DNA from: an uncultured Bacillota bacterium | Lineage (GTDB): Bacteria; Bacillota_I; Bacilli_A; RFN20; CAG-826 | NCBI GenBank assembly: GCA_949287245.1 | Contig: CASEFL010000004.1 | Coordinates: forward strand, 41,499 to 105,498 | Reading direction: 5' to 3' | Length of the DNA stretch: 64,000 bases | Shown: positions 27,981 to 34,287 of the stretch, in pieces | How positions within the stretch are numbered: the stretch's first letter is position 1 | Layout of the letters: every line of letters starts with the position of its first letter | The notes under the pieces: generated by a model | What the model was told of the DNA's origin: nothing | Database searches by the model: none | Seen by the model: only the letters and a program-made list of their open reading frames with translations | Position numbers and translations under genes: made by a program

Positions 27981-30941
27981 TTAATGAATCGAATCACACC
28001 AAACAAGCCGCCATAATGCTCGTCCAGTGTCGAAGTAGAAATAACCATATCCTAAACTTTGCGATTTTCCAAAAACAGAAATAGTTTGTGTATTTGTACG
28101 AGACCTGCTTTTTGAATCAATTGATGTAATACCACTATATTCCCATTCTGAATTCGTTGTTGATGCTCCAGACCATGAACTTTCTTCCGCACTTGTTGGT
28201 GGAGCAGTAACACCTTGTCCTAAGTTAGATAGCAAACTGCTTTGATTATGATTTGAGGCTGAGGCAAACGTTGTTGGGTTATCGCTATCTGTACTATTAC
28301 CATTCATTACTTTAGAACGAATGATGGCTAAATTTCCATAAATTCTTCCGTTTGTTTGACGAGTAGGCATAGAGGTTAACGTGCCTAAAGTAGTTAAAGA
28401 ATCAATCGTTTGATATCCATTTTCCACGATTGTTGAACTTTGATATGCCCAAGAAGTGTAAGTACTTTCTCCATCTGGTTTCCAGCCTTGAAACGCCTGA
28501 TATTTGCCTGTTTGCGATTCTGTTCTTGTTCTTGTAAGCAATCGAGAAAAATTTGAGGTAATCATATTAAGCATTTGAACATACGATCCCCCAAATTTTG
28601 CAAAATATCCGCCGCCATAAGAAACAAAAGGAATTACTTTTCTTCCTACTCCTTCTTCCAAAGAAGCTTGAAAATTAGGTAATTCAACTTCTCCATAGCT
28701 TCCATCATTTAAACGGTTCCCTTCAACCCACGTGCCATTGGGGCTAGTAAGCCACGTATTTCCAAAATTAGAATCATAGGAATCATCAAATTTATAAAAA
28801 CAAACATTAAGAAGATTATCTCCTGCATATTTCTTAATTAATGAATCTACGGGATCATAAATCCATTTCTCGGAAGGATTATAAGGAGATGAAACATTGT
28901 CTTTTAAACTTACAAGATCTCTTACTACATAGCCATCACAAGCAAGAGGCGCAGCAGAATATAAAACATTAGCGCCTATCTGTGGCATTGGACCTCCGCC
29001 ATGAAAAATATCTGGAAAAAACCAATCAGGAATAACCCATGATACTAAATCATTTAAAGTAACCGCCCCTCTACGCATCACTCCTACGGGAGTCGTTAAA
29101 AATGTACTCTGTGTTTGCGTGGCTAAAAAGGTTCTTGCTTCTGGTCCTAAATGCGTTTCTCCTCCAATACCAAAAACATCAGAACTAGTCATATTGCTAT
29201 CTAAAGCGAAAGAACCTTCAAGATTAAAGAAGGCCGGTTTTACTAAAGAATCCCAAGAGTTAAAACTAGCGCTGAAATTAGGATAGTAGGATGTAGAGTA
29301 ATAAGCAGGCAAAGGGAAACTATCATAAGCACGGAGAATCGCTTCCCCAGTAAAAGACATTTCTTGCGGAAGAATTGCGGTAGATGAACCCGCAAGATGA
29401 GGAAGGATTTGAGCCGTAGCAGATCGCTTAGAAAAAATAAGTTTTGAGGAGGAATCAACATCTAAAGATGAACCAGGAAGAAAACCAAATGTGTTTCCAA
29501 AATTTAAAGAAGCTCCATTTTGTAAATAAAAATGCATCCAAGGGGCAACAGGGAAATCCATTTCCATAAAGGATACTTCAGCAGTAACCACAACATTCAT
29601 ACCCATCATCTCTGCACTCATATCGATCGGAAGCACCATGGCGTTCAAATTAAAGGATTGATTGGATGAATCTCCTGGTCCAATAAGAACAAATTCTTCG
29701 CGATAATCCACAATATAAGGTTTCCAATAATTCGCTATATTTGCAGCAAAAGAAGAATCCACCGTATGAGAGCCTTTCACATAACGAACGACTTTAGAAG
29801 AACTATCTTGAATCTGAACCATATAAGAACTATCTGGTCCAATTAAAGGAACTTCTGTCTTCCCATAATCTCCTTGGGCAAATAAGGAAGTATCGCCTCC
29901 AAATTGACCACCATATTTAACTTCTAAAGTTGCTTCTAAATTCGGCATCGAGAAAAGGAAAAAAGGTGCAGAATTAGCAAGATAAGAACCAACAGTTACA
30001 TTTCCGCCGTTAAAATCTTCAACAACTAAGCCCCCCACCATATGGGCACCATTTTCCACAACAATTTTTCCTGAACGATTAATGGACGAATCAATAACGC
30101 GCCCATGTTGATAAAAATTTGCTCCGCTTTGTAAAGTAATGGTATGTCCATTTAAATCAAGTTCGGTATAAGAACCAGTAATCACATCTCCCGAGAGCCC
30201 GGCACTGCGTCTAGAAGTGATTGCCTCCACTCCCAAAGAGCCCCCATTTCCAATCACCAAATCCGACTTTAAAACAATCGTAATTAAACGGTTTGCCTCA
30301 GTAATATGGGTGGCAGCATGAGTAGTTGTTGGAGCACCACTATTCAAATTTCTTTGATTCCCATCCGTAGAATAAGAAGAGCCAATAATGAAAGATAATG
30401 GTTTATTTAAAATAAAATTGTCTTCGACATCTAAAAGAACATATTTGTCATTTAAACCCATCCGTTCTCGACTATCCGGCAAAAACACAGACGCATTTAA
30501 ATCTGCACTGCTACCTGTCGTGAGGTTAACCGATAAATGATCTACACTACCTTGTTGAACATAATCGGAAAAAGTAACAAATCCCGTTTCAGGGATGGGG
30601 GCAAACTCCACTAAATCAATTTGGGAAACTTTCTCTGGAACAATAAAATCAGAGAAAATTGCCCGTTCATTGATCGTCTCTCCCGCATCATCTTTTGCCG
30701 TATATTGATAGCCAGGAACATCTTCCTCTACTTTAATTAGGGTACCTTCTGGGACTAAAGTTTGTTTTAAAGATTGTCCTTCTGAATCTTTAAAATTTAC
30801 TTGCACTAAATTGCCCACAACACCTATATCGGCACCCAATTCAATATAAAAGGAACTAGACCCTAAGGAAAGGGTAGAAATCCCAAGTAAAACACCAAGA
30901 ATGGTTAAGGATAAAAGAGTTGTTTTACTTTGTTTCCTCAT
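27981..30941 (-). CDS. Large secreted protein, candidate adhesin or tip subunit (preferred start 30941)
   Basis: Signal peptide ending LGSS-SFYI; G/S/T/N-rich beta-type composition; no C-terminal anchor seen. Confidence 0.65.
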   Translation of the reverse strand: MRKQSKTTLLSLTILGVLLGISTLSLGSSSFYIELGADIGVVGNLVQVNFKDSEGQSLKQTLVPEGTLIKVEEDVPGYQYTAKDDAGETINERAIFSDFIVPEKVSQIDLVEFAPIPETGFVTFSDYVQQGSVDHLSVNLTTGSSADLNASVFLPDSRERMGLNDKYVLLDVEDNFILNKPLSFIIGSSYSTDGNQRNLNSGAPTTTHAATHITEANRLITIVLKSDLVIGNGGSLGVEAITSRRSAGLSGDVITGSYTELDLNGHTITLQSGANFYQHGRVIDSSINRSGKIVVENGAHMVGGLVVEDFNGGNVTVGSYLANSAPFFLFSMPNLEATLEVKYGGQFGGDTSLFAQGDYGKTEVPLIGPDSSYMVQIQDSSSKVVRYVKGSHTVDSSFAANIANYWKPYIVDYREEFVLIGPGDSSNQSFNLNAMVLPIDMSAEMMGMNVVVTAEVSFMEMDFPVAPWMHFYLQNGASLNFGNTFGFLPGSSLDVDSSSKLIFSKRSATAQILPHLAGSSTAILPQEMSFTGEAILRAYDSFPLPAYYSTSYYPNFSASFNSWDSLVKPAFFNLEGSFALDSNMTSSDVFGIGGETHLGPEARTFLATQTQSTFLTTPVGVMRRGAVTLNDLVSWVIPDWFFPDIFHGGGPMPQIGANVLYSAAPLACDGYVVRDLVSLKDNVSSPYNPSEKWIYDPVDSLIKKYAGDNLLNVCFYKFDDSYDSNFGNTWLTSPNGTWVEGNRLNDGSYGEVELPNFQASLEEGVGRKVIPFVSYGGGYFAKFGGSYVQMLNMITSNFSRLLTRTRTESQTGKYQAFQGWKPDGESTYTSWAYQSSTIVENGYQTIDSLTTLGTLTSMPTRQTNGRIYGNLAIIRSKVMNGNSTDSDNPTTFASASNHNQSSLLSNLGQGVTAPPTSAEESSWSGASTTNSEWEYSGITSIDSKSRSRTNTQTISVFGKSQSLGYGYFYFDTGRALWRLVWCDSIH

Positions 30942-33474: not shown

Positions 33475-34287
33475 TTAAGGATTAGCTACAGAAGCAATGG
33501 TAGCATTTAAAGCAATGGTCTTACCATCAAGTTCATTATGGAAAGCATTTAACTCTGCCGTAACGTTTTGTGCATCCACTGCAGTAGGATTCTCTGCAAA
33601 TGTTTCATTATAGAAAGTAGCAGGAGATTTCTTATTGAAATAAGAACCCCATTGGAACTCTAAAGTAAGATTTGCAGTTGCAGTAATAATGCCATTGGAT
33701 GGAGCGCCAATGGTCCAAGTGGTATCAGTGGTAGCAGGAATGGTCGTTTTTGATGGGGCATCAACATAAGTCCAAGAATCAGGCTCTTCAACTTCCGCGG
33801 AAGAAGATGCAGTCTTATCAATTTTAGTACGCTTATTAATGGTATCAGTAGACACTAATAAATCGGCATTATCTCCAATCTCAGTTATATCTCCATTTTT
33901 ATAATGGGGAAGAGAGTAGGTAATTTCCAAATGATTTCCCGCTGTTAAATAATCTTCACCATATTGAACAGTCACCTCAAAGGTCACTTTCATAGAATCT
34001 TCGTCAACTGTGACGTCACCGCCAGTTCCTGTTTGAACTAAACCGCTATCTACTGCTTGTTTCTCAGCTAATTTGAGGCGAGAACCTTCTTTCACGTTCA
34101 TCTTAAAGTAAATGGAATTATTTTGAACCGTATCAACATCTACGCCAACGGATGGTGTTTGATTGGTTTGATTAACTCCAACGATGTAGGTTGCCGAGGC
34201 AGTAGTTACTAAAGCGATACCGAGAAATAACCCAATACCACCAAGAGTCCACTTTTTTCGACTTTGAATTTTTGTAGACTTTGCCAT
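33475..34287 (-). CDS. Secreted protein with SipW-class-like signal peptide; candidate filament subunit (preferred start 34287)
   Basis: AGGAGG RBS; MAKSTKIQSRKKWTLGGIGLFLGIALVTTASA-TYIV; EFQWGSYF. Confidence 0.7.
   Translation of the reverse strand: MAKSTKIQSRKKWTLGGIGLFLGIALVTTASATYIVGVNQTNQTPSVGVDVDTVQNNSIYFKMNVKEGSRLKLAEKQAVDSGLVQTGTGGDVTVDEDSMKVTFEVTVQYGEDYLTAGNHLEITYSLPHYKNGDITEIGDNADLLVSTDTINKRTKIDKTASSSAEVEEPDSWTYVDAPSKTTIPATTDTTWTIGAPSNGIITATANLTLEFQWGSYFNKKSPATFYNETFAENPTAVDAQNVTAELNAFHNELDGKTIALNATIASVANP

Follow-up and report, generated by a model that had tools for sequence, protein, structure and literature searches.

SipW of Bacillus subtilis cuts TasA at GGGTW-A↓A-F (the arrow marks the cut here and below), behind an uncharged signal segment of 21 residues that is cleaved off (PMC10269814). 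The Trp at P2 and the Phe at P2′ of this site hinder LepB, a signal peptidase of the P type, SipW processes the site, and in E. coli there is no verified LepB substrate with an aromatic residue at P2′ (PMC10269814). The donor strand of both TasA and TapA is made up of the residues that directly follow the SipW cut (PMC10269814, PMC9674648); in the TasA fibre it comprises residues 28-38, the first 11 of the mature protein (PMC9674648). In this work we analysed a 64-kb stretch of DNA (hereafter the window) from contig CASEFL010000004.1 of an uncultured Bacillota bacterium, in which a signal peptidase gene lies among four genes, named A, B, C and D here, for predicted secreted proteins with a common motif at the end of the N-terminal hydrophobic segment (Table 1). 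We consider it likely that the cluster encodes a dedicated signal peptidase of the endoplasmic reticulum (ER)/archaeal type (SipW-like) together with its own substrates. The observation is much broader than a single locus and extends to more than 70 related genomes. An earlier sequence-only reading of the window had proposed a private processing pathway with a variant motif; the conservation of the motif and its confinement to the cluster in those genomes speak for this proposal, and cleavage and dependence on the enzyme are the parts of it that we infer.

The peptidase passed TIGR02228 (sigpep_I_arch; MEROPS S26B) with 65.9 bits (cut-off 51.85) and failed the Bacillus SipW equivalog NF046067 (66.3 bits, cut-off 190), which matched residues 124-255 only. 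Its catalytic boxes are SGSMS (Ser112), VHR (His167) and GDAN..D (Asp186 and Asp192); all of 79 homologues have Ser112, and His167, Asp186 and Asp192 are each kept in at least 90% of them. The catalytic pair is thus Ser and His, not Lys, and the family profile aligns with human SEC11A/C over the His and Asp boxes. In the AlphaFold2 model (mean predicted local distance difference test, pLDDT, 85) a long first membrane helix (residues 3-39) is followed by a cytoplasmic helix (44-59) just past G41-x-x-D44, a second membrane helix (61-94), a beta-rich catalytic domain (98-215) and a third membrane helix (228-266); the tail has a three-stranded beta unit (282-304) over the conserved sequence YKGxxYxFxxG and then helices. 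The best Foldseek matches of this predicted structure were SEC11A and SEC11C (7p2p_A and 7p2q_A, probability 1.0, TM-score 0.58-0.61 on the target), followed by SpsB. Sequence and predicted fold support the assignment to the ER/archaeal (SipW-type) Ser-His signal peptidases, in agreement with the sequence-only reading. The extra N-terminal transmembrane (TM) helix named there is present, and so is the long cytoplasmic tail, which has 105 amino acids (aa) and not about 90. The family comprises about 90 clusters in the protein database, all of them unnamed or called 'hypothetical'.

The N-termini of A to D have a K/R-rich start, an uncharged stretch of 18-23 residues and then the motif, and all four motif strings that had been read at the ends of signal peptides were found at those places on the minus strand. 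The P2′ residues of B, C, A and D are Y, F, Y and F and the P2 residues F, F, S and S, respectively. A regular expression run on all open reading frames (ORFs) of at least 50 aa in the window found no other protein in which the motif closes an N-terminal hydrophobic segment. That SipW-class substrates have an aromatic residue just after the cut, as the sequence-only reading stated, agrees with the published TasA site with its Phe at P2′ and Trp at P2 (PMC10269814).

Next, we examined the motif in relatives. A scan of one genome per species with a 13-sequence peptidase alignment gave 72 loci, in which 1-7 proteins per cluster carry the motif as G-F-(A/S)↓(T/S)-W-(I/V)-(I/V)-G. Among 134 unique N-termini of these loci, G was found at -3 in 87%, F at -2 in 89% and A or S at -1 in 99%; downstream of the proposed cut, T or S occupied +1 in 100% and W, F and Y occupied +2 in 88, 7 and 5%, respectively, after which the consensus continues with I/V/L, I/V and G. 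Since the selecting regular expression set in advance which residues six of these positions could hold, information comes from the preferences inside those sets alone. From the last charged residue to the proposed cut the distance is 20 ± 0.9 residues, and the cut obeys the -3/-1 rule (G/A at -3, A/S at -1). Loci missed by the regular expression have near variants such as AGA↓TW, AFS↓AW, GFA↓VW and GTA↓AF. An independent exhaustive profile search found the motif in 142/142 of the best cluster representatives of the family of A and B, 135 fitting the pattern and 7 being one-residue variants. No other 10-residue block of the family is as conserved (3.05 bits vs 2.37 for the next best and 1.1-1.9 for most others), and such conservation of a signal-peptide block is unusual. 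High conservation extends over the full hydrophobic segment in the A-type subfamily (F 95%, L 96%, TT 87-95%).

The motif is confined to the cluster. Over 1.3 Mb of related loci, about 180 genuine motif N-termini lie within the conserved module and on its strand and 0 in the flanks, after removal of seven false positives of the regular expression in hydrophobic segments of the ATPase, the peptidase and lipoproteins. It is also shared by at least three unrelated kinds of mature domain. Mature C shows no detectable similarity to the mature-domain hidden Markov model (HMM) of A/B (E 5.5), and mature D and many 'downstream' proteins (several truncated where the locus ends) fail the same HMM. Since mature C, mature D and many downstream proteins are unlike A/B, the motif appears to be a transferable signal and not only a relic of paralogy.

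Scoring against the SipW-cognate signal model had been suggested as a check. TIGR04088 (cut-off 19 bits) was run on the N-termini of A to D and of four relatives and gave no match at E values up to 10; TasA as positive control scored 38-40 bits, and scans with TIGR04089 and TIGR04090 were negative. Membership in the SipW-cognate class was therefore not borne out, and the wording 'variant motif' fits. Proteins flanking distant peptidases carry GGV(F/Y)A↓(A/Q/Y)(W/F)x(Y/F), intermediate between the TasA-type and the window-type motifs.

The 72 loci come nearly all from metagenome-assembled genomes (MAGs) of uncultured gut 'Bacilli'/'Mollicutes', including Candidatus Onthovivens and Clostridium sp. 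CAG:568, and these names apparently point to the order RFN20. Sortases are reported to be absent from this order, and peptidoglycan is predicted to be missing from two of its families (PMC10868615). The module, of about 16 kb and about 10 genes, consists of 1-7 small secreted proteins, the peptidase, sometimes a D-like large protein, and then the ATPase and ATP-binding cassette (ABC) genes. The AAA_5 ATPase was found in 70/72 loci, a protein of about 450 aa in 67, the ABC ATPase in 66, the permease in 63, an anchored protein of about 800 aa in 60 and the lipoprotein in 54. Flanking genes vary between loci while the neighbours of the peptidase stay; because the flanks differ, the module is a unit and not mere inherited gene order. 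Look-ups from the substrate side (P0116 and P0202) recovered the same arrangement.

The substrate proteins A and B belong to a family of 1,873 clusters at 50% identity (1,136 below 1e-10) with no Pfam/NCBIfam model; its second signature is FxWGxxFxxxxP near the C-terminus. A single-sequence search with B returned 3 proteins only, and a profile from 113 locus-derived sequences was used instead. None of 99 scanned family members matched Pfam or NCBIfam, and Pfam, NCBIfam and PDB sequence searches with A, B, C, D and the 799-aa protein of the module gave nothing significant. The AlphaFold2 model of B has an alpha/beta core with pLDDT 85-94, and residues 1-43, which would include the first 16 mature residues, are below 50. 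Foldseek found no match to this model in PDB below E 0.08 and no significant one in BFVD. A TasA-like fold for B was rejected, as no match fell below E 0.01 in PDB/BFVD though the PDB library holds TasA entries (PMC9674648 cites 5OF2). For D neither a family nor a PDB match was found; its homologues occur in 6 loci, 3 of them scoring only E 3e-4 to 3e-8, mostly with looser motifs (GSA↓AYLV, GNA↓SFNV, ANG↓TFIV, GYS↓AWLV, GQS↓TWIT). Detectable relatives of C and D are confined to the closest genomes. In one related locus (L059) two D-like large proteins and a small motif protein stand upstream of the A/B genes, with the variants GYS↓AWLV, GQS↓TWIT and VGFS↓TWYS, an arrangement which suggests that the substrate set can expand.

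From these results we propose the following pathway. A, B, C and D would be exported by Sec as precursors with a basic N-terminus, about 20 uncharged residues and then small-x-small↓(T/S)-aromatic-(I/V/Y)-(I/V). The peptidase, with its Ser112-His167 pair and Asp186/192 at the outer face of the membrane, would cut after A/S, and mature A would then begin with TYIVGVNQTNQTPSVGVDVDTVQNNSIYFK, as predicted from the sequence. The aromatic P2′ of all four window proteins, together with the usual Phe at P2 in relatives, would make a poor site for Ser-Lys (P-type) peptidases, as with TasA, and processing would therefore be reserved for the enzyme of the cluster. The mature proteins would open with the conserved (T/S)-(W/F/Y)-(I/V)-(I/V)-G, followed by about 20 residues that are unstructured in the monomer model, and this exposed N-terminus would most probably join subunits into a surface polymer of paralogues. 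That the N-terminus mediates assembly is suggested by analogy and is much less certain than the pairing of enzyme and substrates. Cleavage, its position, its exclusivity to this enzyme and the assembly role are all steps that we infer.

Several points weigh against this pathway or parts of it. The cleavage position was assigned by the -3/-1 rule and by analogy. The signals fail TIGR04088, the bridging ones included, of which the best had 12.5 bits; against the SipW-dependent signal models one distant relative had sub-threshold scores of 12.5 and 12.8 bits. The mature domain of B is not a TasA-like jellyroll by Foldseek, which leaves the donor-strand idea structurally unsupported, and the conserved hydrophobic run after the cut, 3-4 residues, is short for a donor strand. 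The loci were gathered via the peptidase, and its co-occurrence with the substrates is partly by construction; the substrate-side look-ups offset this in part. The remaining two points are also those on which two other explanations lean: the hydrophobic segment of the A-type subfamily, conserved over its full length, and the search for P-type boxes, which found none but covered too little of each genome.

A peptidase that is the general, perhaps sole, type I signal peptidase of the cell, with a shared motif that stems in part from common descent of paralogous neighbours, is in our judgement improbable. It would fit the regular expression for P-type boxes, which found nothing in the window or in the 1.3 Mb of related loci, and in reduced Mollicutes-like genomes a LepB often cannot be recognised; the absence of LepB, however, cannot be shown from about 20 kb per genome, which is far too little. 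Paralogy does hold for A, B and most upstream proteins, but C, D and the downstream family, with mature parts unlike A/B, have the motif too. In the same loci 175 other N-terminally hydrophobic and 56 lipoprotein-like proteins lack it; these counts were made with a rough classifier of our own, and membrane proteins encoded in the cluster are among those counted. The constant neighbours of the peptidase amid variable flanking genes also speak against a general enzyme, and the signal peptide of a general export route is not, as a rule, the best-conserved part of its protein.

The N-terminal segments might instead be kept as anchors or pilin-like helices, the GFA-TWIIG end docking into the AAA+/ABC membrane machine while the peptidase acts elsewhere, an explanation to which we give little credence. 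About 20 hydrophobic residues plus W-I-I can span a membrane, and the highly conserved hydrophobic segment of the A-type subfamily, as seen in type IV pilins, fits a retained anchor too; cells that have neither wall nor sortases, if that is so here, would need another means to retain a cleaved protein (PMC10868615). Eight of 99 A/B members hit the archaeal Pilin_N model weakly, but the best E value was 0.11 and these scores are far under threshold. No class III cleavage motif was seen in the N-termini and no prepilin peptidase among the cluster genes. The small residues at -3/-1, close to 100%, mark a site for peptidase I, which an anchor would not need, an S26 active site lies on the outer face exactly at the position of the motif, and the 21-residue uncharged segment of TasA is cleaved nevertheless (PMC10269814). 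Chance likeness among ordinary signal peptides, for which one could cite the shortness of the motif and the compositional bias of signal-peptide ends, is already refuted: only four N-termini in 64 kb have the motif, contiguous with the peptidase, and it recurs in about 180 proteins of the 72 loci and throughout the family representatives. A dedicated enzyme paired with its own substrates is the explanation that we prefer.

The sequence-only reading had further suggested that the peptidase extensions scaffold other operon proteins. They may do so, and the support is circumstantial. Scaffolding is favoured because the extensions are conserved: G41 and D44 of the G-x-x-D loop, cytoplasmic and placed after the extra first helix, are invariant in 79 homologues, and distant Clostridia-type relatives without the present tail keep the loop as GLSD, GLED and GAHD. 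It is favoured also because, in most inspected loci without a D-like gene, the ATPase gene lies within about 50 nt of the peptidase gene or overlaps it. The distant peptidases that share the N-extension and the loop, from Clostridia and other MAGs, lack the long tail of the window enzyme (one has a different long tail) and lack the AAA+/ABC module; the long C-tail was met only alongside this module, a contrast with just four comparison loci, and this argues in the same direction. A fuller picture, which we hold to be rather unlikely as a whole, would make the cluster of about 16 kb a system with which reduced gut Bacilli, possibly without a wall, assemble a surface polymer or coat. New-fold subunits would be freed by the three-helix SipW-like peptidase and joined by their exposed (T/S)-W-(I/V)-(I/V)-G, and the G-x-x-D loop and beta-hairpin tail would couple processing to the membrane-anchored McrB-like AAA+ ATPase with its DUF2357-like partner, and to the ABC transporter.

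The positions of the features are collected in Table 1. Every gene of the window lies on the minus strand, and the intergenic spacers from A to the ATPase gene range from a 23-nt overlap, that of the D start with the peptidase gene, to 32 nt. The longest ORF of A opens at GTG 34314; an AGGAGGG Shine-Dalgarno site and the promoter-like site favour ATG 34287 as the start. Shine-Dalgarno sites also back the starts of B, the peptidase gene and the next gene, and the C start has no clear one. The start of D may be its third codon, at 30941. The promoter-like site is a consensus match only, and such sites show no enrichment in the region. No convincing terminator was found within the gene run of the region. 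Rfam and tRNA scans of the window gave nothing at threshold, although it holds ribosomal-protein genes and rpoB/rpoC, where ribosomal leader elements are frequent. Among sequencing runs, a search turned up a single metagenome and nothing from RNA.

Table 1. Positions of the cluster genes, motifs, peptidase segments and neighbouring features in the window, and of selected features in related loci.
Feature	Position	Strand	Description
Gene A	33475..34287	(-)	270 aa from ATG 34287; A/B substrate family (HMM E 1e-45); signal-like residues 1-32
Motif of A	34180-34203	(-)	TASA↓TYIV
Gene B	32723..33463	(-)	246 aa; A/B substrate family; signal-like residues 1-27
Motif of B	33371-33394	(-)	VAFS↓TYIV
Gene C	31980..32708	(-)	242 aa; N-terminal motif as in A/B
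Motif of C	32622-32645	(-)	VGFS↓TFIY
Peptidase gene	30925..31977	(-)	350 aa; ER/archaeal-type signal peptidase I
Peptidase TM1	residues 5-27		
Peptidase G-x-x-D loop	residues 41-44; about 31846-31857		
Peptidase TM2	residues 73-95		
Peptidase catalytic domain	residues 96-213		
Peptidase TM3	residues 214-245		
Peptidase cytoplasmic tail	residues 246-350		
Gene D	27981..30947	(-)	988 aa; large secreted protein, motif-bearing
Motif of D	30843-30866	(-)	LGSS↓SFYI
AAA_5 (McrB/MoxR-like) ATPase gene	26143..27948	(-)	601 aa; membrane-anchored; directly downstream of D
Remaining conserved cluster genes	18963..26139	(-)	Linked to the peptidase by synteny only
Gene for 425-aa protein	24862-26139	(-)	C-terminal zinc ribbon; a relative weakly scores as DUF2357
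Genes for DrrA/GldA-like ABC ATPase, 534-aa permease, 799-aa protein and 363-aa lipoprotein	18963-24926	(-)	A relative of the permease is 12TM_1
Promoter-like site	34313..34342	(-)	TTGACG-18-TATAGT; 10/12 consensus match, consensus only; just upstream of A
SigH-like sigma factor gene	34414-34989	(-)	
nusG	17935-18651	(-)	
Copper-type heavy-metal P-type ATPase gene	15371-17515	(-)	HMA domain; between nusG and rplK
Far-end motif proteins of related loci	L009 20420-20938; L040 20463-20936; L035 20349-21059; about 15 other loci		e.g. SLGFA↓SFLI, SVGFA↓SFLI
D-like large proteins and small motif protein of a related locus	L059 426-6702		D-like proteins of 806 and 850 aa

The AAA_5 ATPase has an N-terminal multi-pass membrane domain and matches the PADLOC candidate-defence model PDC-M26A (E 4e-40). 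Together with the 425-aa zinc-ribbon protein it stands beside the peptidase in about 70/72 loci, and the two may be a defence pair or part of an export module. The 799-aa protein is N-terminally anchored and has no family match, and the lipoprotein has a Listeria-Bacteroides repeat; the motif is found in neither of these, nor in the ABC ATPase or the permease. Many relatives have an extra small motif protein past the lipoprotein gene, at the far end of the module, where the window has nusG instead. The place of the module in the window and in the closest relatives is between the SigH-like sigma factor gene and nusG, within a conserved neighbourhood cysS-rlmB-sigH ... nusG-rplK-rplA-rplJ-rpoB-rpoC; in more distant relatives it is sited elsewhere. 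The copper-type ATPase gene next to nusG stands in an unusual place.

If the pairing is true, the principle of a private signal peptidase with a cognate signal extends beyond TasA/TapA, CalY and BsaA to a large uncharacterised family of gut bacteria that are common but uncultured. Some archaeal matrix proteins presumably belong to the known cases as well. The aromatic P2/P2′ pattern would explain by a simple rule the dependence of some secreted proteins on an ER-type peptidase, and could be used for genome-wide substrate annotation. If the organism belongs to RFN20, the cluster is a candidate for building or retaining surface structures; a self-assembling surface structure would be useful there because sortases are reported absent from the order and peptidoglycan from two families. 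The peptidase extensions and the constant pairing with the AAA+ ATPase suggest a coupling of processing to a machine in the cytoplasm, of which we found no description for SipW-type processing in the literature searched.

Compared with known systems, the cluster resembles tapA-sipW-tasA of B. subtilis in that an ER-type Ser-His peptidase is encoded between its own substrates. The substrates resemble TasA in the uncharged segment of about 20-21 residues, the small residues at -3/-1 about 20 residues from the last charge, the aromatic residues at P2/P2′ round a small P1 (W-A↓A-F in TasA, F-A↓T-W here) and the conserved sequence after the cut. They differ from it in that they are not TasA/camelysin-like in sequence (NF046066, Peptidase_M73) or in predicted fold. 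The window peptidase is set apart from SipW by its additional membrane helix at the N-terminus, its G-x-x-D loop and its 105-aa tail, and clusters of this type have up to 7 paralogous substrates and an AAA+/ABC module without counterpart in Bacillus. The SipW-dependent NCBIfam classes (TIGR04088 cognate_SipW, TIGR04089, TIGR04090 BsaA) likewise tie a signal class to a neighbouring SipW-like peptidase, but the window proteins and their relatives fall below these models and TasA above. SEC11A/C is the best PDB match by sequence and structure, with the His and Asp boxes in common; SEC11, however, has one membrane helix and accessory subunits, whereas the window peptidase has three predicted membrane helices and a tail in one chain. 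Type IV pilins share the design of paralogous subunits with a conserved hydrophobic N-terminus, a dedicated peptidase, and an ATPase and membrane partners in the cluster. Their peptidase, however, is an aspartyl and not an S26 serine enzyme and cuts at the opposite end of the segment, the window proteins have no G↓F-x-x-x-E, and the ATPase is of the AAA_5 and not the PilB-like kind. We take the archaeal AbpA and AbpX to be processed by an archaeal-type signal peptidase I. They are described as secreted TasA-like subunits that polymerise by an N-terminal donor strand (PMC9245690; bioRxiv 10.64898/2026.01.04.697558), whereas the predicted fold of B is not TasA-like and polymerisation of the cluster proteins is a hypothesis only. 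We concluded that the arrangement differs from known SipW systems in its distinct signal class, its new substrate family and its extended peptidase within a larger conserved module.

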